From Leptospirillia bacterium (lineage in GTDB: Bacteria; Nitrospirota; JACRHL01), in assembly GCA_046754085.1 (NCBI GenBank), contig JBHHVE010000007.1, positions 26,964-90,963 on the forward strand: a stretch of 64,000 nucleotides of DNA. Direction: 5' to 3'. Position 1 is the stretch's first letter. Each line of letters opens with the position of its first letter. Positions 6,725 through 53,544 of the stretch are shown here, piece after piece. The notes beneath the pieces are model-generated. The model saw nothing but the letters and a program-made list of their open reading frames with translations, was not told the origin of the DNA and did no database searches. The position numbers and the translations under genes are program-made.

Positions 6725-6731
6725 CCTACAC

Positions 6732-38970: not shown

Positions 38971-38975
38971 CGATC

Positions 38976-39320
38976 ATGAAGAACGTCGTCCTGCTTTTGC
39001 GCCACACCCCCCTGAACCACATCAAGAACCTGGAGGCGTTCCGCCTCGGTCTCGGCCTGACCCTGAGCAACAACGAGGTCACGGTGGCGATGATCGATCA
39101 GGGGGTGTTCAATGCCCTCGATTTCCGGCCCGAGGTGGTGGGACGCCCCTCGGTGGACAGTTTTCTGGACTTCTACGGCGACGTCGGCGTGCGCTCACTG
39201 GTGGACCGCGAGGGCGTTGCCCAGGCGGGCATCAGCACCCTGCGTGAGGGCGTTGAAGCGGTGGATAGAAAAGAAATCATCGAGATGCTGCGCAGCGCCG
39301 ACCTGGTTATCCCGTTCTAG
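38976..39320 (+). CDS. DsrF/TusC-like protein (114 aa)
   Basis: VVLLLRHTP..EAFRLGLGL..VAMIDQGVFNAL...ADLVIPF is the DsrE/F-fold pattern and lacks the active-site Cys. Confidence 0.7.
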   Translation: MKNVVLLLRHTPLNHIKNLEAFRLGLGLTLSNNEVTVAMIDQGVFNALDFRPEVVGRPSVDSFLDFYGDVGVRSLVDREGVAQAGISTLREGVEAVDRKEIIEMLRSADLVIPF

Positions 39321-39329
39321 GAGAAGAGA

Positions 39330-39578
39330 GTGGCGAAAACCCTGCATATTCTCCGCAACCTGGACATCCGGCTCTGTCAGGAAACGCTGAACGCCCCGGC
39401 GGGTGACTCGGTGCTCCTGATTCAGGACGGCGTACTGGGACGCGACCATTTTGACTGTGAGGTCCGTGTCTGTCGTGACGACCTTACCGCCCGCAACATG
39501 GAGAGCAGCCACAAGGCGCTTTCCTATACTGAAATCAAGGACCTGATGCTGGCCCACGACCGCGTGATTCTATGGTAG
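39330..39578 (+). CDS. DsrH/TusB-like protein (82 aa)
   Basis: GTG start. LHILRN..RLCQETL..SVLLIQDGV has a Cys16 positioned like DsrH Cys20 of Allochromatium (recalled). Confidence 0.65.
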   Translation: MAKTLHILRNLDIRLCQETLNAPAGDSVLLIQDGVLGRDHFDCEVRVCRDDLTARNMESSHKALSYTEIKDLMLAHDRVILW

Positions 39579-39621
39579 CCGAGGGGTCCGGACCGAATAT
39601 CCGTTTGGAGGTTTATTTGTC

Positions 39622-39864
39622 ATGAGTGAGACCATTCAGGTCGATCAGGAACTCGACTGCCGGGGGCTTTCCTGCCCGCTGCCGATCGTCAAGACCAAGA
39701 AGGCCATCGACGGCATGGCGGTGGGACAAATCCTCAAAATGACCGCCACCGATCCTGGATCGGTGAACGACATGGCCGCCTGGGTCCGAAAAACCGGCAA
39801 CGATATAGTGGACCAGACCGAAGCCGGCGGCGAGTACACATACTTTATCCGCAAAGCCGGGTAG
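39622..39864 (+). CDS. tusA: TusA-family sulfur carrier
   Basis: LDCRGLSCPLPIVKTKKAI contains the CPxP motif; also ATDPGSVNDMAAW. Confidence 0.88.
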   Translation: MSETIQVDQELDCRGLSCPLPIVKTKKAIDGMAVGQILKMTATDPGSVNDMAAWVRKTGNDIVDQTEAGGEYTYFIRKAG

Positions 39865-39929
39865 CGTTAGAGTTATACATGGACCCGCGGCACGCCGAGG
39901 GCCATTCAACACATAGGAATCCGCCACCC

Positions 39930-40529
39930 ATGAGCGAGACGGACAAGAACATAGACAGCATTGTCGAGGAACGGCTACAGGCCCTGCTCGACCAGAAACT
40001 CGGCAGTCTGGTGGACGAGCGGGTGGCCAAGGCCCTGGCCGAGCACGAGGCCGCCCAGGGCGGTCAGCTCGACCGCATCGCCATTGTCGCCTCCAAGGGC
40101 AGCCTGGACATGGCCTATCCGCCCCTGATCCTCGCCACCACGGCGGCGGCCATGGGCATGGAGGCCGGTATCTTCTTCACCTTCTACGGCCTCGACATCA
40201 TCAACAAAAAGAAGAACGCCCACCTCCAGGTGCCGTCTCTGGCCAACCCGGCCATGCCGGTGCCGGTGCCCAACATCATCGGCGCCCTGCCGGGCATGAC
40301 CATGGCGGCCACCATGATGATGAAAAACTGGATGGGCCGGGTGAACCTCAACTCAATCCCCGAGTTCCTCGAGATGGCCCTGGACCTGGACTGCAAGCTG
40401 ATCGGCTGCCAGATGACCATGGACGTCATGGGCACCTCGAAAGAGGACATGATCGACGGCATCGAAGTCGGTGGCGCCGCCACTTTCCTGGAGTATGCCA
40501 GCAAGGCCAAGATCAGCCTGTTTATCTAA
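39930..40529 (+). CDS. DsrE2-like (DsrE/DsrF-like family, COG2210-type) protein
   Basis: ATG 39930. Motifs: IAIVASKGSLDMAYPPLILATTAAAMGMEAGIFFTFYGL, CKLIGCQMTMDVMG. Confidence 0.75.
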   Translation: MSETDKNIDSIVEERLQALLDQKLGSLVDERVAKALAEHEAAQGGQLDRIAIVASKGSLDMAYPPLILATTAAAMGMEAGIFFTFYGLDIINKKKNAHLQVPSLANPAMPVPVPNIIGALPGMTMAATMMMKNWMGRVNLNSIPEFLEMALDLDCKLIGCQMTMDVMGTSKEDMIDGIEVGGAATFLEYASKAKISLFI

Positions 40530-40546
40530 AATTTCGCCCCAGTGCG

Positions 40547-40586
40547 AAAAAAGGCCGCCGGGCGAAACGCACCGGCGGCCTTTTTT
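40547..40586. terminator. Bidirectional rho-independent terminator
   Basis: A6 run, stem GGCCGCCGG, 10-nt loop, stem CCGGCGGCC, T6 run. Lies between the convergent dsrE2-like gene and wecE. Confidence 0.85.
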
Positions 40587-40606
40587 CGATCCCGGCGGAA
40601 CCGGCT

Positions 40607-41743
40607 TTACGCTCCCCCCAATTCCTGTCCAATCAGGTCGCGGGCACGTTCCACCACCTCGTCCGGCAGATCCACCCACAGGGGCAGGCGGATCAGCCGT
40701 TCGCTCAACGCCTCGGTGTTGGGAAGGGGATCGCGCACCGCCCCATATTTGAGGCCCGCGGGCGAGCTGTGCAGCGGCACATAGTGGAACACCGCGGAGA
40801 GTCCCGCCTCCTTGAGCCGCGCCAGCACCCGGGTGCGGGCGTCCAGGTCCGGCAGCAGCAGGTAGTACATATGGGCGTTGTGCTCGCATCCCTCGGGCAC
40901 GATGGGACGCCGCACCTTGCCCGCCGCCTCCAGGTCGGCGAAGGCGGTGTGATAGCGTTCCCACACCGCCAGCCGGAAGCGGGTGATCTCTTCCCCGCTC
41001 TCCAGTTGGGCCAGCAGGAACGCCGCCACCAGATCACTCGGCAAAAACGACGAGCCCACGTCGCTCCAGGTGTATTTGTCCACCTGGCCCCGGAAAAACT
41101 GCCGCCGGTTGGTGCCCTTCTCCCAGATGATCTCGGCCCGCTCGGCCAGCGCCGGGTCGTTGACCAGCAGCGCGCCCCCCTCCCCGGAAATCAGGTTCTT
41201 GGTCTCGTGAAAGCTGAAGCATCCCAACTGGCCGATGCTGCCCAGCGGCCTCCCCTTGTAACGGGCGATCACCCCCTGGGCGGCGTCTTCAATCACCGGC
41301 AGACGGTGGCGTCCGGCAATCTCCATGATGGTGTCCATCTCGCAGGCGACCCCGGCATAGTGCACCGGCACGATGGCGCGGGTACGAGGGGTGATGGCCC
41401 GCTCAATCAGGCGCTCGTCCAGGTTCAGGGTGTCCTCCCGGATGTCCACGAACACCGGCACGCCACCCCGCAGCACGAAGGCGTTGGCGGTGGAGACGAA
41501 GGTGTAGGACGGCATGATGACTTCATCGCCCGGCCCCACCCCGGCCAGCAGTGCCGACATCTCGAGGGCGGCGGTACAGGAGTGAGTCAAAAGCGCCCGG
41601 GCACAGTCCGCGTAGGCTTCCAGCCAGGCGGCACAGCGTTTGGTGAACGGCCCGTCCCCGGCCAGGCGGCCCGCGCCGAGGGCCTCCTGAACGTACTCGA
41701 CCTCTTTTCCGGTCGCGTACGGCTTGTTAAAACGAATCGTCAA
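40607..41743 (-). CDS. wecE: dTDP-4-amino-4,6-dideoxygalactose (Fuc4N) transaminase
   Basis: Near-collinear with E. coli WecE as recalled (EVIMPSYTFVSTANAFVLRG, VPVHYAGVACEMDTIM, GCFSFHETKN, EKGTNRRQFFRGQVDKYTW, NAHMYY). TTG 41743 is preceded by GAAGGAG plus 5 nt and gives 378 aa. Confidence 0.88.
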   Translation of the reverse strand: MTIRFNKPYATGKEVEYVQEALGAGRLAGDGPFTKRCAAWLEAYADCARALLTHSCTAALEMSALLAGVGPGDEVIMPSYTFVSTANAFVLRGGVPVFVDIREDTLNLDERLIERAITPRTRAIVPVHYAGVACEMDTIMEIAGRHRLPVIEDAAQGVIARYKGRPLGSIGQLGCFSFHETKNLISGEGGALLVNDPALAERAEIIWEKGTNRRQFFRGQVDKYTWSDVGSSFLPSDLVAAFLLAQLESGEEITRFRLAVWERYHTAFADLEAAGKVRRPIVPEGCEHNAHMYYLLLPDLDARTRVLARLKEAGLSAVFHYVPLHSSPAGLKYGAVRDPLPNTEALSERLIRLPLWVDLPDEVVERARDLIGQELGGA

Positions 41744-41843
41744 AAAAACTCCTTCCCGCCGCACCCCCGCCGGTACGGACATCGGAGGACATTATGAATG
41801 ATTTTTCCGACCAATAGGAGCCGCCGCCACCCCGGCCGGAAAT

Positions 41844-44171
41844 TCACAGGATGATCTCGGTGCCGTCCGCCGTGATCAGTTGCAACAGAATACGGTATGC
41901 GCCGCGCTGGATCAGTGGTGCGTCGGATAGATCGCTCCGCCAGGCCGCCGGGGGTGGTGCCTCCGGGCCGGGCGGGGCGTCCGGCGCATAGAAGCTCCGC
42001 CGCGCGCCGGACAGGGTGGTTCCCCCGTACAGGCGCATGTCGCCGCGGGTCTGGTAACGCCAGTACGACGCACGTCCTTCCGCTGCTATTGTTTTGAGCA
42101 TTTTCCACTCCGCTTTGGTCAGCCACGGGCGCGGACCGGGGTACACGCCGGAATCCTCCGCCCCCAGATCCCCGAACAGTTCGCTTCCTGTCCCCGGTGC
42201 GGGAACACGTTCAGGCTGTAGAGTCACCGTGACCTTTTCGCTGCCGATTACGCCGTCGGGGGCCAGCCGATAGACCAGCCAGAACCGCATGCCCGGCACC
42301 ACGTGCAGATCTTTCCACGTGTCGTATGGCTGAATCGGGTTCAGGTTTTCCGCCAATTTCCGGATCACACCACCATGCTGCCACCCCTTCACCATATAGC
42401 GGGCGGGCCTGCCATTGATTCGCACGTCCAGATCGTCCAGGCGGCCATCCCCGTCCCGCAGGTCGATCTGCAGGGTCGCCGTGACCACTTTTCCCCAGTC
42501 GAAGCCGGGGGGCAGGGTGATCTCGTGCCGTACCCGCTGCCCGGGATGGTCCAGCGCGAGACCGAAGCTGCGCCAGTCGTCATACAAGGCCTGATGAACG
42601 GTAACGGGCAGCACGATCAGAAGCGTGATGGCGGCGAACCGCAGCCGCCTTTCCCCACGTCCCAGATTCCCGCCCACGCCTGCGGCAAACCGGGCGGCGG
42701 CCGCCAACAGGCACAGGTCAAACAGCACCAGCGCCGTGGCGTGCAGCACCCCGGTCCCCTGACCGGCAAACAGCAGGAACCCGTTTTCGGCGAACAACAC
42801 CGCGGCCGACCCAGCGAACACCACCGTCCATACCCCATAGGCAGTCCGCAACCGGGGGGGTATGAGCCGCCGCAAGACTTCTTTCAGGCACGGGGTCAGC
42901 GCCTCCACACCCCGCACCCAGGCCACCGCCGCAAGCACGATGACAAACGCCATCACCACGAAGGTGAAGCGCCGTTCCTCGGAGAAGTACAGGGTATGCA
43001 CCCCGCTGATGAACGCCACCGGCAACAGGGTGAACAACAGCACCGCCCCCCGCCTGGCCAACAAGGCGCCCAGCACCGCACCAAACACCACCAGCCCATG
43101 CAGTGCCGACACCGCGGCGGCGGGCACCAGCAAAGGATTGGTGTAGGCGGTGGCCGGCCCGTGCCATAACCGATGGAATTTCTCGACCCGCAGGGCCAGG
43201 CTGGCCAGGGGCGCCTCCCGTACCGACTCGGCCACCGTCGTGGCGTGGGGCCATTTGCCGGTTTTCAAATATCCCTCGTTCGGCCGGGGCCACCCCTGGT
43301 TGGGCAGGTGGTACGAGGCATTGAAACTGTCGGCAATCGAACGCTCGCCGGTGACGGAAAAGGTAAACGATTCAAACGCCAGGGTGTGGTTAAGTACCAG
43401 CAGCCAAGCCAGGTACGGTATCAGACACACGGCGGCACCCACCCCAAAGGCGCCCACGGCCTCCCACCTGCCCTCCCGGCGCCGGACCGTCAGCCCGTAA
43501 ACGCCGAGGGCCACCACGTATACCACCGCGTAGGGCATGAAGACCGGGCGTGTCAGCGCCAGCAGGGACACGCACAACATCGCCAGCGGCATGCCCCACC
43601 ACCATGCTCTGCGCCCGCCTCCGGGCAGCCGGATGGTCAGATACACGGATGCCACGAGCAGGAACGAGGCCAGGTTTTCCGTCAGGATCTGGGTCGCCAT
43701 GTACGTATACGGCAGGTAGGCGGCAAACAGCAGCGTCGCCACCCACGCTACCCGTATACCACCCAGCCGTCGCCCGATGCCGAATACCAGAAGCGCCGTG
43801 GCCGCGTGCAGAAGGGAGTGAAACAGACGCACCCAAGCCACATCCTCTCCCACAAACAACTTGAAGAGGGCGATCACCACCGGGTAACCCGGCCCCTGGT
43901 AAGCCATCGCCTGCACCAGGTCCCGGGCGTCGGGCAGCGGGAGCCCTAGGTCGGGGCTGGGAGACACATGCCGCAACCACGGCCAGTGATGACCAATCCA
44001 GCCCAGGAGGTATTGGGCAAAGCTGTAATAATTCTTGGCGTCAGCAATCACCGGCCGGTAGACACCGTAGGCCGCATATACTCCATCCACGGCCAAAATC
44101 AGGCCGACGACCAGCAGCAACAGGCCCGTGTGCCCTCTGAACCGACTAAGCAGGCTTTTCAGCACCGCCAT
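41844..44171 (-). CDS. GT-C fold glycosyltransferase (PMT_2 / ArnT-like) with a large C-terminal soluble domain
   Basis: About 500 aa of multi-TM region with the early loop motif RPVIADAKNYYSFAQYL, followed by about 270 aa of non-membrane region. Start taken at ATG 44171; the track's TTG 44246 is less likely. Confidence 0.7.
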   Translation of the reverse strand: MAVLKSLLSRFRGHTGLLLLVVGLILAVDGVYAAYGVYRPVIADAKNYYSFAQYLLGWIGHHWPWLRHVSPSPDLGLPLPDARDLVQAMAYQGPGYPVVIALFKLFVGEDVAWVRLFHSLLHAATALLVFGIGRRLGGIRVAWVATLLFAAYLPYTYMATQILTENLASFLLVASVYLTIRLPGGGRRAWWWGMPLAMLCVSLLALTRPVFMPYAVVYVVALGVYGLTVRRREGRWEAVGAFGVGAAVCLIPYLAWLLVLNHTLAFESFTFSVTGERSIADSFNASYHLPNQGWPRPNEGYLKTGKWPHATTVAESVREAPLASLALRVEKFHRLWHGPATAYTNPLLVPAAAVSALHGLVVFGAVLGALLARRGAVLLFTLLPVAFISGVHTLYFSEERRFTFVVMAFVIVLAAVAWVRGVEALTPCLKEVLRRLIPPRLRTAYGVWTVVFAGSAAVLFAENGFLLFAGQGTGVLHATALVLFDLCLLAAAARFAAGVGGNLGRGERRLRFAAITLLIVLPVTVHQALYDDWRSFGLALDHPGQRVRHEITLPPGFDWGKVVTATLQIDLRDGDGRLDDLDVRINGRPARYMVKGWQHGGVIRKLAENLNPIQPYDTWKDLHVVPGMRFWLVYRLAPDGVIGSEKVTVTLQPERVPAPGTGSELFGDLGAEDSGVYPGPRPWLTKAEWKMLKTIAAEGRASYWRYQTRGDMRLYGGTTLSGARRSFYAPDAPPGPEAPPPAAWRSDLSDAPLIQRGAYRILLQLITADGTEIIL

Positions 44172-44214
44172 GACTGGACGCTGTAATGCCCGTGGGCGAC
44201 TTTCTTTCAACAAT

Positions 44215-44307
44215 CTATACCCCATAAACCACAATGCCGGTGACAATCAGCGCCATGGCAATGCCGTTGTGAATGATTTTTCGGGAAACAAGCAGCCAGC
44301 GGTTCAA
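44215..44307 (-). pseudogene. Remnant of a third small EamA/ArnE-F-like gene (C-terminal TM only)
   Basis: Translation ..LNRWLLVSRKIIHNGIAMALIVTGIVVYGV* parallels the C-terminus ..ILKETFSRDHAVAMTMIVTGIVIYAV* of the 45574-45885 gene. The DNA is also similar (CTATACNNCATAAAYCACAATSCCGGTSAC). There is no room for a full-length gene. Confidence 0.55.
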
Positions 44308-44350
44308 AAGCTGACCGGATGTACAATCCCTGCATGGCCCACTTGCCGGG

Positions 44351-45502
44351 CTACCGCTGTTTCCGTGCCCGGACCATGGTCATCAACCGCCGGCGGGTTC
44401 CCGCCATTCGGGACATCACTGTGCGGCCTTTCAGCCGGAGAACAGGATGCTCCAGCAGATGCCACGACACAATCGCAAACGGCAGGGTCGACAGGGTGGC
44501 GAATGCGGCCAGCGGCAGCGGCATCATGTCAGGAGCGTTCGAGAGAATCACCTGCTGAACCGGCCAGGCATAGATGTAGGTGCCGTAGGAGTAATCCCCG
44601 ATCCGGTTGTAATGACGCAGGACTCCCCCTGGAACATATGCGAACCAAAACGTACCATACGCCACCGTGGCGTATGCCATCAGCCCGAACATCGGCGTCC
44701 CGAGCGCGGCGACCAAGGCGAGTAGGAAAAGCACCATGAGCGGTGTACTGATCGGGATGACGGATCGAAACAGGTAACAAAAAGCGCCTATGGCAAAGTA
44801 GATCGCCAGATAGTCGACCCCCACCAGCATGGAGGAAAGCGCCGGATTTGACAGGCATAAGGCACCCAATCCCAATACGGCCACCGGAAACAGCAAGCGT
44901 GACTTCAGCACCCCCAACACGCCGAACAGCCCGACAAAAACATACATGCGCACCTCGGACGGAAGCGTCCAGATGGAGCCGTTCACACCGAAGTTTGGCA
45001 AATCCCTGAACACCCCCGGAAGCGTAAGTTGCACATGGGGGAGCAGCATGGTGGTATTGACCAGAAGGTAACGGGCGGTGTGGCCGTGCGATAAAAACCT
45101 TTCCAGGGGCAACGTGGTGGCCCATGCGGCGACCCCCAGGCTGAACAGAATAGCCGCCACCAGACCGGGGTAAATCCGCAACACCCGTGCTTCAATAAAC
45201 TGGGCCACGCTGCCCCGGCAAACAAAGCTTTTGGTCACCAGATATCCGCTGATCGCAAAAAAGACCATCACGCCCATCCTCGCGAAGGTCACCTTCTGAT
45301 CCGGGAATGCGTTGCGGAGCGGTTCCAAGGCGACGTAGCCGCTCAATGCGTAGCTGTGGGTGAAAATCACCGCGACAGCGGCCATCATCCGCAACAGATT
45401 GTAATTGTTATCCCGACTGCCCGTATCCAGCTCCGAAAGGGTGCGCCCGCGAAACATCCGCTTCAGCTTGCCGATCACGCCGGTTGTTTCAATGGGTAAC
45501 AC
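44351..45502 (-). CDS. Acyltransferase family 3 (OafA/YrhL-like) membrane O-acyltransferase
   Basis: About 10 TM segments. N-terminal motif NNYNLLRMMAAVAVIFTHS, then FFAISGYLV. Confidence 0.8.
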   Translation of the reverse strand: MLPIETTGVIGKLKRMFRGRTLSELDTGSRDNNYNLLRMMAAVAVIFTHSYALSGYVALEPLRNAFPDQKVTFARMGVMVFFAISGYLVTKSFVCRGSVAQFIEARVLRIYPGLVAAILFSLGVAAWATTLPLERFLSHGHTARYLLVNTTMLLPHVQLTLPGVFRDLPNFGVNGSIWTLPSEVRMYVFVGLFGVLGVLKSRLLFPVAVLGLGALCLSNPALSSMLVGVDYLAIYFAIGAFCYLFRSVIPISTPLMVLFLLALVAALGTPMFGLMAYATVAYGTFWFAYVPGGVLRHYNRIGDYSYGTYIYAWPVQQVILSNAPDMMPLPLAAFATLSTLPFAIVSWHLLEHPVLRLKGRTVMSRMAGTRRRLMTMVRARKQR

Positions 45503-45573
45503 GCCTTACAGGCCCTTTCCGCCCGGTCTCCGGTTTTTATACGGGCTCCGGGGTGGGGGCAACTTCTGACCGT

Positions 45574-45885
45574 CTATACAGCATAAATCACAATCCCGGT
45601 CACGATCATCGTCATGGCAACAGCATGGTCGCGGGAAAAGGTTTCCTTCAGTATGAAGCGGGACAGGCCGGCCATCAGAATCTGGGTGATGGCGGTGCTC
45701 ATGTAGACCATGCCGATGCTCAAGCCCTTCAGGGCCAGGTAGGCCATCAGGGACGCGGAAAGAAACAGCCCCACCGAAAGCAGCACCAGGGCGCGCCGGT
45801 GCGCCCTGAAATACAACTTGTAGGTCACCTGCGCCAGGGCGGTAAGGACGATGGCGGCGGCAAGTGCCGCCCAGTGAAGGGTCAT
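45574..45885 (-). CDS. Small EamA/SMR-like membrane protein (ArnE/ArnF-like flippase subunit candidate)
   Basis: ATG 45885 gives 103 aa with 3-4 TM segments. The start overlaps the stop of the upstream acetyltransferase by 4 nt. Confidence 0.65.
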   Translation of the reverse strand: MTLHWAALAAAIVLTALAQVTYKLYFRAHRRALVLLSVGLFLSASLMAYLALKGLSIGMVYMSTAITQILMAGLSRFILKETFSRDHAVAMTMIVTGIVIYAV

Positions 45886-46388
45886 GCGCCCGTATCCCGC
45901 TGTTTGATCACCCGCGCCGGCACCCCCACCGCCACCGAATCCGGCGGGATGTCGCGGCTCACCACACTGCCTGCCCCCACCACGCTGCGGTCGCCCACAT
46001 GCACCCCGGGCAGCAGGATGACGCCGGTACCGATCCACACGTCGTCCCCCACCGTGATGGAGCCGCCGCTGTGGCCATAGCGGGTGTCCGCAGTGTCGTG
46101 GCCGGCGGCGTGAAAACGGGTGTGCGGCCCCACCCGCACGTTGTTCCCCAGCACGATGCGGCTGCCGCCGAAGAAGTCCGGGTAAAACTCCACCCCGCGA
46201 TTAATGCTGGCGTCACTGCCGATCTCCACCAGCCACGGAAACTTGATGTAGACGTTGTGGTCGAAATAGATGCGCTTGCCGGCCCGGTGCAGGAGCATGC
46301 GCAACACCGGGTTGCGGATGAACCCCGGCACCAGGTTGAGCACCACGTGGAGCATGTGGATCAGGTACACGTAGAGCTGGTTGACCAT
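45882..46388 (-). CDS. Left-handed beta-helix (hexapeptide) acetyltransferase, WcaF/WbbJ-like
   Basis: ATG 46388 gives 168 aa. Hexapeptide repeats: IGSDASINRGVEF, VLGNNVRVGPHTRF, ITVGDDVWIGTGVILLPGVHVGDRSVVGAGSVV. Confidence 0.85.
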   Translation of the reverse strand: MVNQLYVYLIHMLHVVLNLVPGFIRNPVLRMLLHRAGKRIYFDHNVYIKFPWLVEIGSDASINRGVEFYPDFFGGSRIVLGNNVRVGPHTRFHAAGHDTADTRYGHSGGSITVGDDVWIGTGVILLPGVHVGDRSVVGAGSVVSRDIPPDSVAVGVPARVIKQRDTGA

Positions 46389-46435
46389 CAGCTTGGCCCC
46401 GTGATTGCGGGACAGATAGTCCTTGGGGCCGCCCG

Positions 46436-46768
46436 TCACGTCCGCACCCTGAACGCCACCCAGGCGACCCCGGCGGTGATCAGCACGGTGCCCGCCACCT
46501 GATTGGCGCTGATCGGATCGCCATACAGCCAGGCGACCCCCAGCATGAGCGGAAAAAACATGCTCGACAGGGGGTAGCTGTGACTTAAAGGATAACGCCG
46601 ATGGGCATAGCCCCACGCCAGAAAGCGCGCGGCGTTCAGGGCCGCCACCAGCACAATGCCAAGCGCCACAAAAAGTGCCGGCAACAGCGGATGGTCGGCC
46701 ATGCCTTTCAGCACCACGGCACTGATGATCTGCAGCGCCACGGCGGCAAATATCACGAGCACCACCAC
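46436..46768 (-). CDS. Second small EamA/SMR-like membrane protein (ArnE/ArnF-like)
   Basis: About 111 aa from GTG 46768, with 4 TM segments (VVVLVIFAAVALQIISAVVLKG...). The start is uncertain. Confidence 0.6.
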   Translation of the reverse strand: MVVLVIFAAVALQIISAVVLKGMADHPLLPALFVALGIVLVAALNAARFLAWGYAHRRYPLSHSYPLSSMFFPLMLGVAWLYGDPISANQVAGTVLITAGVAWVAFRVRT

Positions 46769-47541
46769 TAGCCGGCCCCCTCCGGGTGGGTCCAGGCATC
46801 CAGCGGCCTTCCAAGCCATGCCGCCAAACGGGCATTGGGCGCTGCGAAATAGTCCGCCAGATAGCGAACCAAATCCGGATTCGGCGACCCCGATGCGTCT
46901 TCGGGCTCATCGCTGGCATTCACCGGGCCGTCGGAGACGCCGGACACCGCCGTGCTGTCCACTCCGAGAAAGGTAAAGACGGCGGCGGCCGCCGCGGGGT
47001 CTGAAGTCAGCTCCTCAAACAGGAACACCCCGATCTGCCGACGAGGAAAATACCGCTCAAAGGTCGCAATGTAGTCCACGTAGCAGCCCCGCGCCAGGTA
47101 AGCATAAGGAGAGACGGAAAACCGGGAACGGTCATAATCCTCCCGCCGTTTTTCCTCCTGCATGAACGCCTCCGCCATGCTCAGGGTCTCCACCCCGTGC
47201 TGCACGGAAAACCGCCAGTTGGATACGGCGCGCGCCACCGGGTCGCGCAGCAGCACGATAATGCGCGCATCGGGAAAGGCTTCGGAAATGCGCTTTGCGG
47301 CGATGTCCGACTCCAGATACGAGGTACTTTTCTCACCCTTCAGCCATGCCCCCGGCTTACCGGAAAAAAAGCGCTGTTCGTAGTCATCCAGCCCCTTTTC
47401 ATACCGCTCGTCATCCAGAAAAAACTTGGGCTCCGGCCGTACCGGCTCCGCCATTTCGATCTCGGGATGCCCCGCAAGCAGCCGGTAGAGAAAGGTGGTG
47501 CCGCAACGCTGGGCGCCGACGATAAAAAAGTGTTCAGCCAT
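46768..47541 (-). CDS. Sulfotransferase family protein
   Basis: 5'-PSB-type loop FFIVGAQRCGTTFLYRLL and 3'-PB-type motif IIVLLRDPVARAVSNW. ATG 47541, with 47547 as an alternative, overlaps the GT2 stop. Confidence 0.85.
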   Translation of the reverse strand: MAEHFFIVGAQRCGTTFLYRLLAGHPEIEMAEPVRPEPKFFLDDERYEKGLDDYEQRFFSGKPGAWLKGEKSTSYLESDIAAKRISEAFPDARIIVLLRDPVARAVSNWRFSVQHGVETLSMAEAFMQEEKRREDYDRSRFSVSPYAYLARGCYVDYIATFERYFPRRQIGVFLFEELTSDPAAAAAVFTFLGVDSTAVSGVSDGPVNASDEPEDASGSPNPDLVRYLADYFAAPNARLAAWLGRPLDAWTHPEGAG

Positions 47542-48487
47542 CGTCATGCGGGTCCGCGCCCACCACGTCCCGGACATGGAAACTTTCCGCCGAACTGCTC
47601 TGGTTGAGCAGGCGTACCACGTACTCCCCCACCATACCGAGGGTCAACAGGACGATACCGTTGAAAAAACTCATCAGCACCACCAGGGTGGTCCAGCCGG
47701 GCGTCTGGACCTCATGGAACAGGGACCGCAATACATAGAAGGCGCCCAGGGCAAAGCTCAGCACGGAAATGCCGATGCCCACCGACGCCACCAGGCGTAG
47801 CGGGTAGGAGGAGTAGTTGAACAGGATGGTGGCCACCAGCTTCAGGATCTTGTAGACGCTGTAGTTGGTATGGCCCACCGTGCGCTCCCGGTGCTCCACC
47901 CAGGCGTTGGTGCGGCGGTTGGAGAACATCAGGGTCAGGCCGGGAATATATGGATAGCTGGTGCGATAGCTGCACACCCGGTCCACCACGTCGCGCCGGA
48001 TCAGGCGGAAGTTGGAGAGCACCAGACCCTTCTGATTGTGGAAAATCTTGCGGTTGATGGCGCCGATCAGGATCGTCCCGAGGCGCCGGTAAAAGGCGTG
48101 TTTTTTCTGGCGGAAGCGTCCGATCACCAGGTCGTAATCCCCCTCCTTCGCCTTTTCGATGAGGTGGATGATCTCCTCCGGCGGGTTCTGCATGTCATCA
48201 TCCAGGGTCACCACCCAGTCGCCGCTGGCGTAGCCGAAGCCACACATGTTGGCGTTATGCTGGCCGTAATTGTGCAACAGGTTGATGGCGATGATGTGGG
48301 GGTTGGCGGCGGCCTTTTCCTGAAGCACCTGCCAGCTGTCGTCCCGGCTGCCGTCGTTGACGCAGATAATCTCGTAGTCGAGCCCCGCCCCCTCAAAAAA
48401 GGCAACGGTATGGTCCAGGGTGGTGCCCACCACCCCGGCGCTGTTGTAGACCGGGATAACCGCGCTGTATTTAGGCCCGCTGGACAT
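47534..48487 (-). CDS. ArnC-like GT2 polyprenyl-phosphate glycosyltransferase
   Basis: Collinear with E. coli ArnC as recalled (SAVIPVYN, YEIICVNDGSRDDS, HNYGQHNANMCGF, GDWVVTLDDDMQNPPEEI, two C-terminal TM segments, GMVGEYVVRL). Confidence 0.85.
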   Translation of the reverse strand: MSSGPKYSAVIPVYNSAGVVGTTLDHTVAFFEGAGLDYEIICVNDGSRDDSWQVLQEKAAANPHIIAINLLHNYGQHNANMCGFGYASGDWVVTLDDDMQNPPEEIIHLIEKAKEGDYDLVIGRFRQKKHAFYRRLGTILIGAINRKIFHNQKGLVLSNFRLIRRDVVDRVCSYRTSYPYIPGLTLMFSNRRTNAWVEHRERTVGHTNYSVYKILKLVATILFNYSSYPLRLVASVGIGISVLSFALGAFYVLRSLFHEVQTPGWTTLVVLMSFFNGIVLLTLGMVGEYVVRLLNQSSSAESFHVRDVVGADPHDDG

Positions 48488-48607
48488 GACTACCTCACTC
48501 CGACCGGGACACGCCCGCCGGTTTCACCCTGTGACCGGTCAGCTCTATGGGGGAGGCGGACCCGAGGCACACAAGCCGGGATGGGGAGCGTCACGCTCAC
48601 TTGCTGA

Positions 48608-48636
48608 ACACTATTGCATGATTGGAAATGTGTCAA
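48608..48636 (-). promoter_or_regulatory. Candidate sigma70 promoter for the arnC-like operon
   Basis: On the minus strand: TTGACA (48636-48631), 17-nt spacer, TAGTGT (48613-48608). It lies about 120 nt upstream of the GT2 start. Confidence 0.4.
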
Positions 48637-48648
48637 ACCCATGAAAAC

Positions 48649-49485
48649 TCAAGGGTTCTCCCGAAGAAATGCCGCCAGAGCCTCCTGCCACGGGCGCATT
48701 CGTATGCCGAGGGCGGCAAGCCCCTTGCGGCCCAAGGCGGAGTAGGCCGGGCGGGGCGCCGGGCGGGGAAACTCGGCGGTGGTCACCGGCGTCACCTGAG
48801 TGGCAATGCCCCGTAACCGGAAGATTTCCCGGGCGAAACCACACCAACTCACCTCTCCCGCATTGGTCGCATGGTAGGTGCCCCAGGCGGAGGTTTCGAT
48901 CAACCGGCCGATGGCGTCGGCCAGATCCTTCGTCCAGGTGGGGTTGCCCACCTGATCGTCCACCACCGTCAGGGACGGGTTCGACTGCGCCAGCCGCAGC
49001 ATGGTGGCAACGAAGTTGTTGCCGTGCTCGCCATACAACCAGGCGGTTCGCACAATGTAGTGGCGGGGACAGTGGCGGCGTACCGCCTCCTCGCCGGCAA
49101 GCTTGGAACGGCCGTATTCGGTGACGGGTCCGGTGGGGTCGGATTCCCCATAAGGGGTGCGGGAGGTGCCGTCGAATACATAGTCGGTGGAGACGTGCAG
49201 AAGCGCGGCACCGGCCCCGTCTGCGGCCTTTGCCAGGTGCTCCGGTCCCTCGGCGTTGACCTGGCGGGCCTTGTCGCGCTCGGTTTCACAGCCATCCACG
49301 TCGGTGTAGGCGGCGCAGTTGATGATCAGGTCCGGGGCGGTGCGCAGCACCTCCCGCTGCACCGCCACGGGATCGGTGATATCGAGGGCCGACGACGGGT
49401 ACGGATGAACCTCGTGATCCGCCGCCAGCCGCGCCGTCAGATCGCGACCGAGCATGCCGTTGGCGCCGGTAATGAGAATGTTCAC
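48649..49485 (-). CDS. rfbD: dTDP-4-dehydrorhamnose reductase
   Basis: MNILITGANGMLGRDL, INCAAYTDVD, STDYVFDG. Confidence 0.92.
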   Translation of the reverse strand: MNILITGANGMLGRDLTARLAADHEVHPYPSSALDITDPVAVQREVLRTAPDLIINCAAYTDVDGCETERDKARQVNAEGPEHLAKAADGAGAALLHVSTDYVFDGTSRTPYGESDPTGPVTEYGRSKLAGEEAVRRHCPRHYIVRTAWLYGEHGNNFVATMLRLAQSNPSLTVVDDQVGNPTWTKDLADAIGRLIETSAWGTYHATNAGEVSWCGFAREIFRLRGIATQVTPVTTAEFPRPAPRPAYSALGRKGLAALGIRMRPWQEALAAFLRENP

Positions 49486-49513
49486 GGCTATGGATCGGGG
49501 AGCGGCCCCCCGG

Positions 49514-50581
49514 TTACATCCCCTCCTGGGCTTTTTGCACCCAGTCCCGGTGTTTCAGATACCAGTCCACCGTGCCATCAATGCCGGTTTCGAAGGTGTG
49601 GGAGGGCAGCCACCCCAACTCCCGCTCCATGCGGCCCGCGTCGATGGCGTAGCGCCGGTCGTGGCCGGGACGGTCCGTCACAAAGGAGATGAGCTCGCGG
49701 GAACCCGTGCTGCCGGTCTTGGCGTCAACCAGGTCGCACAGAATACCGGCGATATCGGTGTTGGCCCACTCGTTGTGGCCGCCGATATTGTAAACCTCAC
49801 CCACCTGCCCCGCCTCCAGCACCCGCAGAATGGCCTCCACATGGTCAATCACATAGAGCCAGTCGCGCACGTTCTTGCCGTCGCCGTACACCGGGATCGG
49901 CTTTTTCGCCAGTACCGACTCGATCACCACCGGGATGAATTTTTCCGGCAACTGGTAGGGGCCGTAGTTGTTGGAGCAGCGGGTGGTCACCACGGGAAAG
50001 CCATAGGTATGGAACCAGGAGCGCGCCAACAGGTCCGACGACGCCTTGCTGGCGGAGTACGGGCTGTTGGGGGCCAGCGGCGTCTCCTCGGTGAAATAGC
50101 CGGTGGGGCCGAGGGAACCGTACACTTCGTCGGTGGAGACATGCAGAAAACGCGTGTCGTCCCGCTCCCCCCAGGCGGCGCGGGCCGCTTCCAGCAGCAC
50201 GAAGGTGCCCTGCACGTTGGTGGTGACAAACGTCTCCGGGCCGGTAATGGAACGGTCCACATGGGACTCGGCGGCAAAGTGGACCACCCGGGTTGGCGGC
50301 GCAAACCCGGCCTGGTGGGTGACCGGGTGGCTGCCCGACATCAGTTGGTTCACCAACGTCACATCCCGGATATCACCACGCACGAACAGGTGGCGCATCG
50401 GGTCGGGCAGGTCCTCCAGGTTTTCCGGACGGCCCGCATAGGTTAAAAGATCCAGGTTGATGATCCGCACCTCCGGATCCACCGCAAGGGTATGGCGCAC
50501 GAAGTTGGACCCGATAAACCCGGCGCCGCCGGTGACCAGTATGACTTGTTCGCTCAAAGCGATCGTCTTTCGCCTAGGCAT
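49514..50581 (-). CDS. rfbB: dTDP-glucose 4,6-dehydratase
   Basis: ILVTGGAGFIGSNF, HFAAESHVDRS, STDEVYG, PYSASKA. ATG 50581 overlaps the rfbC stop by 8 nt. Confidence 0.95.
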   Translation of the reverse strand: MPRRKTIALSEQVILVTGGAGFIGSNFVRHTLAVDPEVRIINLDLLTYAGRPENLEDLPDPMRHLFVRGDIRDVTLVNQLMSGSHPVTHQAGFAPPTRVVHFAAESHVDRSITGPETFVTTNVQGTFVLLEAARAAWGERDDTRFLHVSTDEVYGSLGPTGYFTEETPLAPNSPYSASKASSDLLARSWFHTYGFPVVTTRCSNNYGPYQLPEKFIPVVIESVLAKKPIPVYGDGKNVRDWLYVIDHVEAILRVLEAGQVGEVYNIGGHNEWANTDIAGILCDLVDAKTGSTGSRELISFVTDRPGHDRRYAIDAGRMERELGWLPSHTFETGIDGTVDWYLKHRDWVQKAQEGM

Positions 50582-51131
50582 CAAAGGTAAACAGTTCGTC
50601 GTCCGGCACATTCGCAAGGGTGCGCGCCGCCCGATCCTTGTCGGACAGGACCGGATCCGACACCGGCCAGTCGATACCGATCGCGGGATCGCTCCATAAA
50701 ATACCGCGGTCCCCTTCCGGGTAGTAGATGTCGGTACATTTATAGATCACCTCGGCGCGCTCGCTGGTCACGCAGAAACCGTGGGCGAATCCCACCGGGA
50801 CATACAGCTGCATTCGGTTTTGCTCGGACAGGGTCACGCCGTACCATTGGCCGAATGTGGGCGAGCCTTTGCGGATGTCCACCGCCACATCGAAAATCTC
50901 TCCGAACACCACCCGCACCAGTTTGCCCTGGGGCCTGCCCAACTGGTAGTGCATTCCCCGCAGGGTGCCCTTCACGGAGGCGGAGTGGTTATCCTGGACG
51001 AAGACTGCCTCAATGCCACCTTCCCGATACTTTTCGGCGTGGTAGGTTTCCATGAAAAAACCACGGGCGTCGCCGAATACCGTGGGCTCCACCCGGATCA
51101 GGCCGGGCAGGGGCGTGGTGTGGAACTTCAT
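50574..51131 (-). CDS. rfbC: dTDP-4-dehydrorhamnose 3,5-epimerase
   Basis: [37 protein letters not shown]. Confidence 0.95.
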
Positions 51132-52012
51132 GCCCCGCCCTCTTCCCGGAGCAGATCGAGCAGATATCCGCCATAGCCGCTCTTGGCCAGTTCCCTGGCC
51201 TCCCCGCGGAGTTGGTCCGCAGTGATATAGCCCTTGCGGTAGGCGATCTCCTCGATACAGGCGATTTTCCAGCCCTGGCGGCTCTCCACCACCTCCACAT
51301 AGTTGGCGGCCTGGAGCAACGCCTCGTGGGTGCCGGTATCAAGCCAGGCGATACCACGGCCCAGGATCTCCACATGCAGTTTCCCGGCATTCAGATAGGT
51401 CTGGTTGACGTCGGTAATCTCCAGTTCGCCCCGAGGCGACGGCTTCAGGTTGGCGGCGATTTCAACCACCCGGTTGTCGTAGAAATAGATGCCGGGCACG
51501 GCATAGCGGGACTTGGGTTTTTCCGGCTTTTCCTCAATCGACACGGCCTGCCCGTTTGTATCAAAGCTGACCACGCCGTAACGCTCCGGATCCCGCACCC
51601 GGTAGGCGAACACGGTGCCGCCCTCCTCCCGCCCGGCGGCCCGCTGCAAGGACGGGATCAGGCCCTGCCCATAGAAGATGTTGTCCCCCAGGGCGAGGCA
51701 GACCCGATCATTTCCGATAAACTCACGGCCCAGCACAAACGCCTGCGCCAGTCCTTCGGGATTGGGTTGCGCCGTGTAAGTCAGGCGGATGCCATAGCGG
51801 CTGCCGTCCCCCAGCAGTTGCTCAAAACGGGGCAGGTCCTCGGGGGTGGAAATCACCATGATGTCGCGGATGCCGGTCAGCATCAGGGTGGACAGGGGGT
51901 AATAGATCATCGGCTTGTCGTACACCGGCATCAGTTGTTTGCTGACCGCACGGGTGAGTGGGTAGAGCCGCGTTCCCGAGCCTCCCGCCAGAATGATCCC
52001 TTTTACCGCCAT
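51128..52012 (-). CDS. rfbA: Glucose-1-phosphate thymidylyltransferase
   Basis: [46 protein letters not shown]. Confidence 0.95.
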
Positions 52013-52022
52013 GTTACTCCTT

Positions 52023-52060
52023 CATAACCGCTTCGGACCGGCATAACCGCTTCGGACCGG
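52023..52060. repeat. Perfect 19-bp tandem duplication in the rfbA leader
   Basis: CATAACCGCTTCGGACCGG occurs twice back to back (52023-52041, 52042-52060). It lies immediately upstream, on the minus strand, of the AAGGAG RBS of rfbA. Confidence 0.95.
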
Positions 52061-52248
52061 ATGGCACGGGCCGCGCAAGCGCCCCACAGGATACCGCGAC
52101 AGTCGTTCGGAACCAACCCGGACCCGGTATAACCCGTGGTAACCCCGCGGTTTATAGGGGGTGCTTGCCTGCTCGGGATGTCCCGTCTATGATTCAGGCT
52201 GGAGCGTTTGTAGCCATTTATGGAGGGACCTGCCGCTTGGAAGGTGCC

Positions 52249-53544
52249 ATGTTCGAGGCGATGATCATTCTCGGCCTGATCATCGCCAATGGATTTTTTG
52301 CCTGTGCCGAGATCGCAATTATTTCCTCCCACAAGGTGCGCATGAAGCAGCTTGCGGACGAGGGAGATGCGGACGCTCGCCGTATTGTCTCCATGCACGC
52401 GGAGCCGGAACGGTTCCTCGCCACCGTGCAGGTGGGGATCACCGTGGTCGGCGCCTCCGCCGCCGCCATCGGTGGCGCCTCTGCCGGAGAACACCTTGAA
52501 CCGATACTGATCAGCGCCGCTAACCTGCCCCCGCCGATTGCCGAAATGGCCGCGATCGGGATCGTGGTGGTCACCATTTCGTACCTCTCCCTGGTGTTGG
52601 GCGAGCTGGTTCCAAAAGCCCTCGCCCTGCGCAATCCGGACGGTATCGCCCTCAAGTTCGGGCAGCCGATGTACCACATTTCCCGAATCGCCACCCCTTT
52701 TGCCCACATCCTGTCGGGCTCGACCACCATCGTCCTCAAGCTATTGCGTATCGACACCACCCCGCCGGAACGCATCGAAACCGAAGAGGACATCAAGCTG
52801 CTGCTGCGGGAAGGCCGGGAAAAAGGCGAGATCGAGGCGGGCGAGCAGGAGTTGATCCACAGCGTTTTCGAGTTCGCCGACGCCTACCTGAGGGAGGTGA
52901 TGGTGCCACGCCCGAAAATGTGTTCGGTGGACATCAGGATGCCACTGGAGGAGATACTCAACCTGATCGCCGAAAACATGCACGCCCGCTACCCGGTCTA
53001 CGATGGTGACAAGGTCTGCGGCATCCTGAACTACAAGGACCTGATCCAGCTGATGCGCGACCCGGAGGCGAAAAAGGGCGGCATCAAGAAAACGCTGCAC
53101 CCCCCCTATTTCGTCCCCGAAACCATGAAGGCGCTCAGGCTGTTAAAAGAACTTCAGCGCCGCAAAACCCAGATGGCGATCGTGGTCAACGAGTACGGCG
53201 ACGTGGCGGGACTGGTCACCGTGGTGGATATCATCGAGGAGATCGTCGGCGACATCCCGGACGAATATGATACCGACGACACCCGGGTGCAGCGCATGCG
53301 CGACGGCTCCCTGGTGGTCGACGCGGACACCAGCATCAGCGACCTGCTGGAAGACTTTTCCCTGAAAATACCCGAGTCCCCGGAGTACGAAACCCTGGGT
53401 GGCTTCATGCTCACCAAGCTTCAGGGCATCCCTCGGGGCGGCGAGGTGGTGCAACAGCCCCACCACAAGTTCACCATTGTCGATATGGACGGCATGCGCA
53501 TCGCGCGGGTCAAAATCGACGTGCTGCCGCAAAAAGCGGCCTAG
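52249..53544 (+). CDS. CNNM/TlyC-family protein (DUF21-CBS pair-CorC_HlyC)
   Basis: ATG 52249. Motifs: IIANGFFACAEIAIIS, GELVPKALA, VMVPRPKM, VVNEYGDVAGLVTVVDIIEEIVGDI. Confidence 0.88.
   Translation: MFEAMIILGLIIANGFFACAEIAIISSHKVRMKQLADEGDADARRIVSMHAEPERFLATVQVGITVVGASAAAIGGASAGEHLEPILISAANLPPPIAEMAAIGIVVVTISYLSLVLGELVPKALALRNPDGIALKFGQPMYHISRIATPFAHILSGSTTIVLKLLRIDTTPPERIETEEDIKLLLREGREKGEIEAGEQELIHSVFEFADAYLREVMVPRPKMCSVDIRMPLEEILNLIAENMHARYPVYDGDKVCGILNYKDLIQLMRDPEAKKGGIKKTLHPPYFVPETMKALRLLKELQRRKTQMAIVVNEYGDVAGLVTVVDIIEEIVGDIPDEYDTDDTRVQRMRDGSLVVDADTSISDLLEDFSLKIPESPEYETLGGFMLTKLQGIPRGGEVVQQPHHKFTIVDMDGMRIARVKIDVLPQKAA

Follow-up and report, generated by a model that had tools for sequence, protein, structure and literature searches.

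In the Arn system of Escherichia coli and Salmonella (PmrHFIJKLM), which attaches 4-amino-4-deoxy-L-arabinose (L-Ara4N) to lipid A, the nucleotide form of a 4-amino sugar is produced by an aminotransferase of the DegT family, the family 2 glycosyltransferase (GT2) ArnC loads the sugar onto undecaprenyl phosphate (Und-P), the small ArnE/ArnF pair flips it, and a glycosyltransferase of the GT-C fold carries out the extracytoplasmic transfer. To be accepted by ArnC, the sugar must be N-capped (formylated) (PMC12690121). The Gtr system (GtrA/GtrB/GtrC) as well as GacI/J/K/L, CsbB/GtcA/YfhO and the GT136 pentofuranose systems (PMC11127046) likewise bring about a post-assembly, extracytoplasmic modification. 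They combine a conserved donor module, consisting of a polyprenyl-phosphate GT2 and a small flippase, with a variable, acceptor-specific GT-C enzyme; examples of GT-C enzymes carrying carbohydrate-binding-type domains have been published (PMC11127046). In the Fuc4NAc branch of enterobacterial common antigen (ECA; RmlA/RmlB-WecE-WecD-WecF), RmlA, RmlB and WecE provide dTDP-4-amino-4,6-dideoxy-D-galactose (dTDP-Fuc4N). Here we describe an island of twelve intact genes (positions 40607-52012, minus strand) on a contig of a Leptospirillia bacterium of the Nitrospirota (JBHHVE010000007.1); the window, to which all positions refer, is the whole stretch of 64,000 nucleotides that was analysed. As judged from its sequence, the island works like Arn and Gtr, is a member of neither, and shares with ECA just the WecE and RmlA/B steps. 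We hold it to be reasonably probable that it is an operon for three-component, lipid-carrier-based periplasmic glycosylation, whose cargo is most likely a sulfated Fuc4N that is probably O-acetylated as well.

Genes were called from a listing of open reading frames (ORFs) combined with a filter on codon-position G+C content, and families were assigned by Pfam and NCBIfam profile searches. An earlier inspection of the bare letters (the sequence-only reading) had proposed twelve intact genes on one strand; all ORFs were found at their positions and in the claimed order, and the family assignment was upheld for each of them. In the order of transcription, these are:

51128-52012, minus strand: rfbA/rmlA, glucose-1-phosphate thymidylyltransferase, 294 residues (TIGR01207, 489.5 bits, cutoff 360.65)
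50574-51131, minus strand: rfbC/rmlC, dTDP-4-dehydrorhamnose 3,5-epimerase, 185 residues (TIGR01221, 253.3 bits, cutoff 155.75)
49514-50581, minus strand: rfbB/rmlB, dTDP-glucose 4,6-dehydratase, 355 residues from the ATG at 50581 (Pfam GDP_Man_Dehyd, 276.9 bits; RmlB 1G1A, 369 bits)
48649-49485, minus strand: rfbD/rmlD, dTDP-4-dehydrorhamnose reductase, 278 residues, GTG start (RmlD_sub_bind, 361.5 bits)
47534-48487, minus strand: ArnC-like GT2, predicted polyprenyl-phosphate glycosyltransferase, 317 residues (Glycos_transf_2, 103 bits)
46768-47541, minus strand: cytoplasmic carbohydrate-type sulfotransferase, 257 residues (Sulfotransfer_3, 70.9 bits, and Sulfotransfer_1, 59.8 bits, both above the Pfam cutoffs)
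46436-46819, minus strand: small ArnF-like membrane protein, 111-127 residues, start at GTG 46769 or ATG 46819 (weak match to Pfam EamA)
45882-46388, minus strand: left-handed beta-helix (LbH) acetyltransferase of the WcaF/Maa/LacA sugar O-acetyltransferase type, 168 residues (Hexapep, 49.3 bits)
45574-45885, minus strand: small ArnE-like membrane protein, 103 residues (EamA-like; ArnE is the top family for six of eight orthologues)
44351-45502, minus strand: Acyltransferase_3 membrane O-acyltransferase without SGNH domain, 383 residues (Acyl_transf_3, 62.3 bits)
41844-44171, minus strand: glycosyltransferase of the GT-C fold, 775 residues, with about 12-13 transmembrane (TM) helices and a C-terminal periplasmic beta-sandwich (PMT, 30 bits, cutoff 22.7)
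40607-41782, minus strand: wecE, dTDP-4-keto-6-deoxy-D-glucose 4-aminotransferase yielding dTDP-Fuc4N, 391 residues (NF008687, 598 bits, cutoff 375)

Like Arn, the island encodes a DegT-family aminotransferase for a 4-amino sugar nucleotide, an ArnC-type GT2, a small ArnE/ArnF-like pair and a GT-C enzyme. In contrast to Arn, the carrier nucleotide is dTDP instead of UDP, the sugar is a 6-deoxyhexose (Fuc4N) instead of a pentose, and the aminotransferase is WecE rather than ArnB (score with the ArnB model 206.5 bits, its cutoff being 631). Instead of the ArnA formyltransferase/decarboxylase and the ArnD deformylase there are a sulfotransferase and an O-acetyltransferase; Pfam and NCBIfam detected no formyltransferase or deacetylase domain in the 12 products. 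Moreover, the GT-C enzyme is not an ArnT orthologue and has an extra C-terminal domain, and the gene cassette defined below also occurs in bacteria without lipid A. Gtr and the related systems rely on a GtrA- or MATE-family flippase and carry Glc, GlcNAc or pentofuranose, whereas the island has the ArnE/F-like pair and, as predicted, a tailored amino sugar; no GtrA-type protein was found in the block, and its small proteins match EamA, ArnE and ArnF. Since neither ArnA, ArnB, ArnC, ArnD and ArnT as these families are defined nor a GtrA-family flippase could be recognized, we place the island outside both systems. With ECA it has in common RfbA, RfbB and an orthologue of WecE. However, the GNAT N-acetyltransferase WecD of ECA is missing from the island, and the Pfam-scanned genes of the window include none for WecA, WecD, WecF, WecG, WzxE, WzyE or WzzE. 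In addition, ECA assembles a repeat unit linked to undecaprenyl pyrophosphate, whereas the island is predicted to load a monosaccharide donor onto Und-P. The sequence-only reading knew of no characterised system of this composition, and our literature search likewise found none.

WecE exceeds, in addition to the threshold of NF008687, that of TIGR02379 (585 bits, cutoff 435), and shares 62% identity with the E. coli enzyme (4PIW, 491 bits), which supports the claim that the aminotransferase makes dTDP-Fuc4N; its start may lie 13 codons later. RfbA and RfbB would produce dTDP-4-keto-6-deoxy-D-glucose, which WecE would aminate to dTDP-Fuc4N. The island encodes a complete dTDP-L-rhamnose set (RmlA/B/C/D); RfbC and RfbD would divert part of the keto sugar to dTDP-L-rhamnose for other glycans. 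The assignment of these steps to RfbA/RfbB, WecE and RfbC/RfbD is backed by scores above curated thresholds.

Three features define the generic class of three-component extracytoplasmic glycosylation systems, namely a polyprenyl-phosphate GT2 of the GtrB/ArnC/DPMS type, a small multi-TM flippase and an enzyme of the GT-C fold; candidates for all three are encoded in the island. The GT2 has two C-terminal TM helices (residues 232-250 and 268-286), as anticipated, and aligns end to end with ArnC structures, these helices included. It is nearer to ArnC (cryo-EM structure 9HWJ: 164 bits, 33% identity, residues 6-309) than to GtrB (5EKP: 137 bits), and homologues with 58-76% identity to it number in the thousands in very different phyla; its orthologues across phyla are 45-76% identical. 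Orthology to ArnC was rejected: the best NCBIfam match is the ArnC equivalog NF007986, where 189.3 bits contrast with a cutoff of 529, and the identity is 33%. Family, fold and conserved gene linkage suggest that the GT2, translationally coupled to the sulfotransferase, loads the tailored sugar onto Und-P.

Each of the two small proteins was aligned with its orthologues from other loci, and every member was scanned against NCBIfam. ArnF was the top family for nine of nine members of the first group (best E-value 2.6e-7, scores below the 99-bit cutoff), and ArnE for six of eight members of the second (best E-value 1e-6, scores below the 92-bit cutoff). The two proteins are related to each other, with an hhalign probability of 79%, and both, with lengths of 103-127 residues, belong to the DMT/SMR superfamily. 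Although below the cutoffs, these top families agree with the proposal that the EamA-like pair is an Arn-style flippase. According to family and gene linkage, an ArnF/ArnE-like heterodimer would flip the lipid-linked sugar to the periplasmic face.

For the GT-C enzyme, a length of roughly 776 residues had been estimated, which we correct to 775, counted from the ATG at 44171. A model built by AlphaFold2 from 19 members of the family has high confidence (pLDDT 85.9, pTM 0.89), and all significant Foldseek matches in the PDB are GT-C enzymes that use polyprenyl-phosphate-linked donors, headed by EmbC/EmbA/EmbB, ArnT (5F15/5EZM), AglB, ALG9, STT3 and Pmt. ArnT is just one of several structural matches of the GT-C kind (TM-score 0.35-0.48). 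Only the comparison of folds gave these matches; a PDB sequence search with the family profile found nothing, and there is no NCBIfam match. The motif D44-x3-Y48, which follows TM1, is conserved in 16-17 of the 19 members, E165, H358 and R401 are invariant, and R208 occurs in 18 of 19. The C-terminal part (approximately residues 531-775, 245 residues) forms a beta-sandwich in the model. The family is rare: an exhaustive search of 1.84 billion proteins gave 22 representatives at E<1e-30, and a word-index search detected a single partial relative, whose 6.4-kb contig offers no informative neighbours. The confident model and its exclusively GT-C matches support the assignment as the third Arn/Gtr component, and we expect the enzyme to transfer the flipped sugar to a periplasmic acceptor. 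Judged by sequence and predicted structure, each element of the Arn/Gtr logic has held.

In order to find related loci, the sulfotransferase profile was used to scan one genome per species, which gave at least 40 more loci. Linkage was determined by tblastn of the window proteins against the 43 loci listed in addition to the window (L003-L045). A GT2 orthologue is present in 31 loci; in 30 it lies on the same strand immediately upstream of the sulfotransferase gene, and among five homologues examined directly the sulfotransferase was always the next gene after the GT2. WecE has an orthologue within 10 kb in 21 loci, both small ArnE/F-like proteins occur in eight, the Hexapep enzyme in six, and rfbA and rfbB in 6-7; an HMM (hidden Markov model) search found the window's GT-C family in two, both from Nitrospirota. 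These data define a compact, portable cassette, comprising the ArnC-like GT2 and the sulfotransferase, usually WecE, and often the ArnE/F-like flippase pair. Nitrospirota, Geothermobacter ehrlichii and a metagenome-assembled genome (MAG) of the Rhodothermales share the gene order GT2, sulfotransferase, ArnF-like, Hexapep, ArnE-like, WecE. Carriers of the cassette belong to Nitrospirota, Desulfuromonadota, Planctomycetota, Chloroflexota, Actinomycetota, Bacteroidota, Rhodothermales, Acidobacteriota, Verrucomicrobiota, Nitrospinota, Omnitrophota, Proteobacteria and the candidate phyla radiation (CPR), i.e. to a dozen or more phyla. GT2, sulfotransferase, WecE and the ArnE/F-like proteins travel together across phyla without wzx or wzy in this comparison of neighbourhoods, a check that the sequence-only reading had asked for. 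Its view of the twelve genes as one system stands for this conserved cassette; rfbACBD is a lineage-specific supply module joined to it, and the acyltransferase is specific to the window.

Two of the loci are close relatives. L003, a Nitrospirota MAG, contains the closest GT2 homologue on a long contig, and its synteny with the window extends well past the island (Kelch proteins, aminopeptidase P, cytochrome c, TPR, CNNM, rfbACBD-GT2-sulfotransferase and the following genes, DsrE/TusA, DsbA). A second Nitrospirota MAG, L009, shows the same arrangement. From these relatives, too, the source of the window is a diderm belonging to Nitrospirota. Most island proteins are 53-74% identical to their counterparts in these MAGs, the GT-C enzyme only 32-40%. 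Both MAGs possess an extra polytopic protein of 572-580 residues right after wecE (L003, 16468-18186; L009, 16324-18066; 39% mutual identity), with a weak PMT_2 match in L003 and no Pfam match in L009; the gene is absent from the window, whose operon ends at wecE. Nearly every locus has a large polytopic protein nearby, and the families differ, among them PMT_2-type proteins, a YfhO-like one and an unannotated family of about 460 residues without Pfam match (L004, 14041-15408; L046, 14056-15516; L036, 2225-3622). The latter follows wecE in Geothermobacter and Rhodothermales (30% mutual identity, E-value 4e-54), occurs in the Peribacteria locus too, carries the motif RADQW after TM1, and may be the cognate transferase in those loci. 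A comparison by hhalign of the window's GT-C family with the post-WecE membrane protein of L046 was negative. Among all related loci, the GT-C HMM matched none except the two from Nitrospirota; no cognate GT-C is universal. By analogy with Gtr, the simplest reading is a modular system, in which a conserved cytoplasmic module would make the donor and a lineage-specific enzyme would serve the acceptor. An essentially self-contained example is L036 from Candidatus Peribacteria (positions 1-15200), where rfbA, rfbB, WecE, Hexapep, GT2, sulfotransferase, both small proteins, CysD, CysNC and a CysQ-like phosphatase are combined; rfbC and rfbD are absent, and two extra Sulfotransfer_2 genes are present. 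To place the whole predicted pathway in about 15 kb is a large investment for a reduced CPR genome.

The sulfotransferase has no predicted TM helix. Its closest structures are 3RNL, an unannotated sulfotransferase from Alicyclobacillus, the heparan-sulfate 3-O-sulfotransferases and the N-sulfotransferase domain of NDST. The motifs GAQRCGTT, PEPKFF and RDPVARAVS align with the loops of 3-OST-3A, NDST1 and 3RNL that bind 3'-phosphoadenosine 5'-phosphosulfate (PAPS), and with their catalytic glutamate (EPKFF compared to EPHFF). The 5'-phosphosulfate-binding (PSB) loop, the catalytic motif PEPKFF and the 3'-phosphate-binding motif are kept in 29 loci, and GAQR[SC]G[TS]T is the signature of the family (window and 28 loci). 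In contrast to the heparan-sulfate enzymes, which act on a polymer, the island's enzyme is bacterial and cytoplasmic, and its predicted substrate is a nucleotide- or lipid-linked monosaccharide. Genes for PAPS synthesis (adenosine 5'-phosphosulfate kinase or CysNC) are linked to the cassette in eight listed loci. The overlap of the sulfotransferase gene with that of the GT2, the linked genes for PAPS synthesis and recycling, and the conserved catalytic motifs all support PAPS-dependent sulfation as a predicted activity of this system. The sulfotransferase had been regarded as a tailoring enzyme, which we can refine: as the GT2 lies immediately upstream of it in 30 loci, it is a core component of the cassette and, rather than being accessory, the partner most tightly linked to the GT2.

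The likely stage of sulfation is indicated by Bacteroidota, which have a sulfotransferase-WecE pair without ArnC-like GT2 inside classical polysaccharide loci. In L032, the pair is located within a Wzm/Wzt polysaccharide locus; in L041, it lies between a Wzx gene and a GT56 transferase, a member of the WecF family and a further likeness to ECA. These sulfotransferase-WecE(-GT56) arrangements suggest that the sulfotransferase acts on a dTDP-sugar, and that a sulfated dTDP-sugar can then be used by a lipid-carrier GT2 or, alternatively, by a cytoplasmic glycosyltransferase of the classical kind. Family, fold and conserved linkage make it most likely that a cytoplasmic, PAPS-dependent enzyme of the heparan-sulfate type sulfates the product of WecE, probably as dTDP-sugar. 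In L033 (Pandoraea), an LPG_synthase_TM protein directly follows the sulfotransferase. Tandem genes of the FGE-sulfatase family (SUMF1-like, formylglycine-generating enzyme) are found in the window at 7035-8111 and 8116-8964 (plus strand), about 33 kb from the island, and sulfatase genes adjoin the cassette in six other loci.

A more specific proposal, which we advance tentatively and consider somewhat unlikely, is that the enzyme is a nucleotide-sugar N-sulfotransferase converting dTDP-Fuc4N to the 4-sulfamido sugar dTDP-Fuc4NS. The need of ArnC for an N-capped sugar is a possible parallel to cytoplasmic tailoring in the island, and it raises the possibility that N-sulfation is the equivalent capping step. 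By analogy, it may then correspond to N-formylation by ArnA for ArnC and to N-acetylation by WecD for WecF; it may pull the equilibrium of the aminotransferase forward and create the form that the GT2 accepts. Consistent with N-sulfation, the sulfotransferase lies directly beside WecE without an acyltransferase in L005, L006, L012, L023 and L041, the LbH enzyme of the window is of the O-acetyltransferase and not of the QdtC/PerB N-acetyltransferase type, and the N-sulfotransferase domain of NDST is among the closest solved relatives. On the other side, the reaction may be ordinary O-sulfation, and methyltransferases that recur beside the cassette could cap the amine instead. If N-sulfation were true, the envelopes of many bacterial phyla would carry a heparan-like, N-sulfated amino sugar that arrives there by a lipid-carrier route. 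The recurring methyltransferases are class I enzymes dependent on S-adenosylmethionine (L004, L005, L036, L047) and might N- or O-methylate the same sugar.

Two further enzymes probably tailor the product. The sequence-only reading had left open whether the LbH enzyme causes N- or O-acetylation; our data favour the O-acetyltransferase type and speak against the N-acetyltransferase type. The enzyme scores 92 bits with the WcaF-family model NF007797 and 93.6 bits with maltose O-acetyltransferase 3SRT; altogether, maltose, galactoside and WcaF O-acetyltransferases reach 81-94 bits, compared to 47 for QdtC and 41 for PerB. An acetyltransferase of the Maa/LacA/WcaF type would O-acetylate the sugar, and the cargo is probably modified in this way. 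No acyltransferase_3 was found by tblastn in the syntenic Nitrospirota loci L003 and L009, nor in any other listed locus (0/43). The G+C content at third codon positions is 0.73 for this gene and approximately 0.8 for its neighbours, and there is a local dip in G+C to 0.588. Owing to this lower value and the absence from the sister loci, the gene looks like a recent insertion into the operon and a window-specific accessory; its product would O-acylate a surface glycan from within the membrane.

Several points weigh against a system for sulfated Fuc4N. Beyond the curated enzyme identities, the functional steps have been deduced from homology, predicted structure and gene linkage, and donor, position of sulfation and acceptor are all inferred. 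GT2, the ArnE/F-like proteins and the GT-C enzyme score below the curated thresholds of the nearest named families. In the whole sulfotransferase family, an arginine stands where the heparan-sulfate sulfotransferases and 3RNL have the PSB-loop lysine, and a gene for PAPS synthesis was not found in the 64-kb window. Synthesis of Fuc4N requires neither rfbC nor rfbD. WecE is missing within 10 kb in about half of the related loci, e.g. in Roseiflexaceae, so that the GT2-sulfotransferase pair may use another sugar in those lineages. Finally, the resemblance of the GT-C C-terminal domain, modelled separately, to BcsB and to jelly-rolls of carbohydrate-binding modules (CBMs) is weak (E > 1e-3, TM-score about 0.25).

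Among the alternatives, it is unlikely that the cargo is plain Fuc4N or Fuc4NAc and that the sulfotransferase is merely co-regulated, its substrate being a precursor of the acceptor glycan, a lipid or some small molecule. The evidence tying the enzyme to the sugar is indirect, the exchange of the PSB-loop lysine for arginine would fit a different role, and some related loci hold extra sulfotransferases of other families. However, the start/stop overlap with the GT2 gene, the near-invariant adjacency of the two (30/43), the direct contact with WecE where the GT2 is absent, and the nearest characterised relatives, which are carbohydrate sulfotransferases, argue for sulfation of the cargo. A true Arn-type modification, in which the GT-C enzyme would act like ArnT and attach the amino sugar to the phosphates of lipid A, thereby altering charge and resistance to cationic peptides, is distinctly unlikely. 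In its favour, the host is diderm and possesses Mla and SecDF genes, ArnC is the nearest of the solved and curated families to the GT2, the flippase pair is ArnE/F-like, and ArnT ranks high among the structures that match the GT-C enzyme; yet the latter lacks an NCBIfam match, has a weak PMT match, bears an extra CBM-like domain as do glycan-binding Emb and GT136 enzymes (PMC11127046), and is replaced by unrelated polytopic proteins in other phyla. Equivalents of ArnA and ArnD are absent, and sulfation would add negative charge rather than remove it. The cassette also occurs in Chloroflexota, Actinomycetota and CPR lineages, which have no lipopolysaccharide (LPS): lipid A cannot be the general acceptor. 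Of the acceptors suggested by the sequence-only reading (lipid A, LPS core, O-antigen or protein), lipid A is consequently improbable in general, whereas the notion of a periplasmic acceptor is retained. The variable GT-C enzyme with its CBM-like domain suggests a polysaccharide rather than lipid A, and its Emb-like modelled architecture points weakly in the same direction.

That the GT2 loads L-rhamnose from rfbACBD onto Und-P, with WecE and the tailoring enzymes serving a separate glycan, seems very improbable to us. In its favour, rfbACBD directly precedes the GT2 gene in each of the three Nitrospirota loci, and rfbC and rfbD play no part in Fuc4N synthesis. However, most phyla have no rfbC or rfbD near the GT2-sulfotransferase(-WecE) cassette, the streamlined Peribacteria locus has rfbA and rfbB only, which is exactly what WecE requires, and rfbD and the GT2 gene are 161 nucleotides apart. 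It is hardly credible that the island is a fragment, with the wzx, wzy and wecA partners of a conventional O-antigen or ECA-type locus located elsewhere. Although rfb genes and wecE are typical of such loci, and the Bacteroidota pair does occur in classical Wzx or ABC-transporter loci, neither the 64-kb window nor the syntenic 21 kb of L003 contains wzx, wzy, wzz, wecA, waaL, WecD or WecF; what the operon encodes instead are the three parts characteristic of post-assembly modification systems. The sequence-only reading had noted the absence of wzx, wzy, wzz and wecA for the block; Pfam scans extend it, together with that of waaL, to the likely genes of the whole window.

The predicted delivery of a sulfated amino sugar is of interest for several reasons. 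Sulfated sugars are rare among described bacterial envelopes, and according to a 2026 paper bacterial sulfated polysaccharides are known only from cyanobacteria so far (PMC13390465). In the searchable literature we found no description of donor sulfation in three-component glycosylation systems and no paper linking a sulfotransferase to an ArnC/GtrB-type lipid-carrier system, to Fuc4N or to Qui4N; no NCBIfam model names the sulfotransferase, the GT-C enzyme or the acyltransferase. The Actinoplanes clusters treated in PMC13390465, of the Wzx/Wzy and GtrA kinds, are unrelated. The core genes are present, as yet unstudied, across at least a dozen bacterial phyla and would represent an uncharacterised way of decorating bacterial surfaces. 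If our reading is right, the sugars delivered by three-component glycosylation systems include a charged amino sugar with chemical tailoring; it could affect surface charge, interactions with phages and antimicrobial peptides, and metal binding, and glyco-engineers would gain a route to sulfated glycans in bacteria. As several carriers are cultured isolates, among them Geothermobacter ehrlichii, Pandoraea terrigena LMG 31013, Novipirellula herctigrandis and Thermoflexus hugenholtzii, the hypothesis is directly testable.

With respect to expression, the start/stop overlaps claimed by the sequence-only reading could be read directly from the letters. They are ATGA for rfbA/rfbC, ATGCCTAG (8 nucleotides) for rfbC/rfbB, ATGGCTGA (8 nucleotides) for GT2/sulfotransferase, and again ATGA for the Hexapep stop and the start of the second small protein. 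Sulfotransferase and first small protein overlap by TAGTG if the GTG at 46769 is the start, and by 52 nucleotides with the ATG at 46819. The proposal of a single co-translated block fits these junctions; the block is not seamless, as there are 161 nucleotides between rfbD and the GT2 gene and 47-179 around the Hexapep, acyltransferase and GT-C genes. The features that divide or bound the island are:

52165-53544, plus strand: CNNM/CorC gene, divergent, on the rfbA side (Pfam scan)
48488-48648, minus strand: gap of 161 nucleotides that separates the cassette from the rfbACBD supply module and may contain an internal promoter (read directly)
40532-40549, minus strand: terminator-like hairpin plus T-run just 3' of wecE (consensus scan, pattern match only)
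39879-40529, plus strand: DsrE2-family gene, convergent, on the wecE side (Pfam scan)

The island is a discrete unit between the divergent CNNM/CorC gene on one side and the terminator-like hairpin and convergent DsrE2 gene on the other. The gap contains a perfect TTGACA (48636-48631), a spacer of 17 nucleotides and TAGTGT, a -10 hexamer below the criteria of the promoter scan tool, which found nothing convincing within the operon; this promoter-like element may allow expression of the cassette independently of rfbACBD. An Rfam scan of 39000-54000 revealed no regulatory RNA, and no family matched the gap.

The window has a G+C content of 63%, and its other likely genes are of the housekeeping kind (Pfam: Mfd, SecA, RNase PH, Mla, ArgRS, Tgt, SecDF, DsbA, LexA, CbiG and others). 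Immediately downstream of the island, sulfur-relay genes of the DsrE, DsrE2 and TusA type occupy 38013-40529 (plus strand), an arrangement kept in L003, and a DsbA-like thioredoxin gene (37092-37907, plus strand) belongs to the same cluster. Three ORFs of 387-499 residues have gene-like codon G+C and no Pfam match (16652-18151, plus strand; 26529-27692, minus strand; 60956-62125, plus strand). A GT1-family protein with a QTMAN_N domain, similar to tRNA-queuosine mannosyltransferase, is encoded next to mfd (5567-6682, plus strand), and the tRNA-guanine transglycosylase gene tgt is located at 33020-34171. A pair of Kelch-repeat beta-propeller genes (56911-57849 and 57746-58780, plus strand) has a syntenic counterpart in L003.

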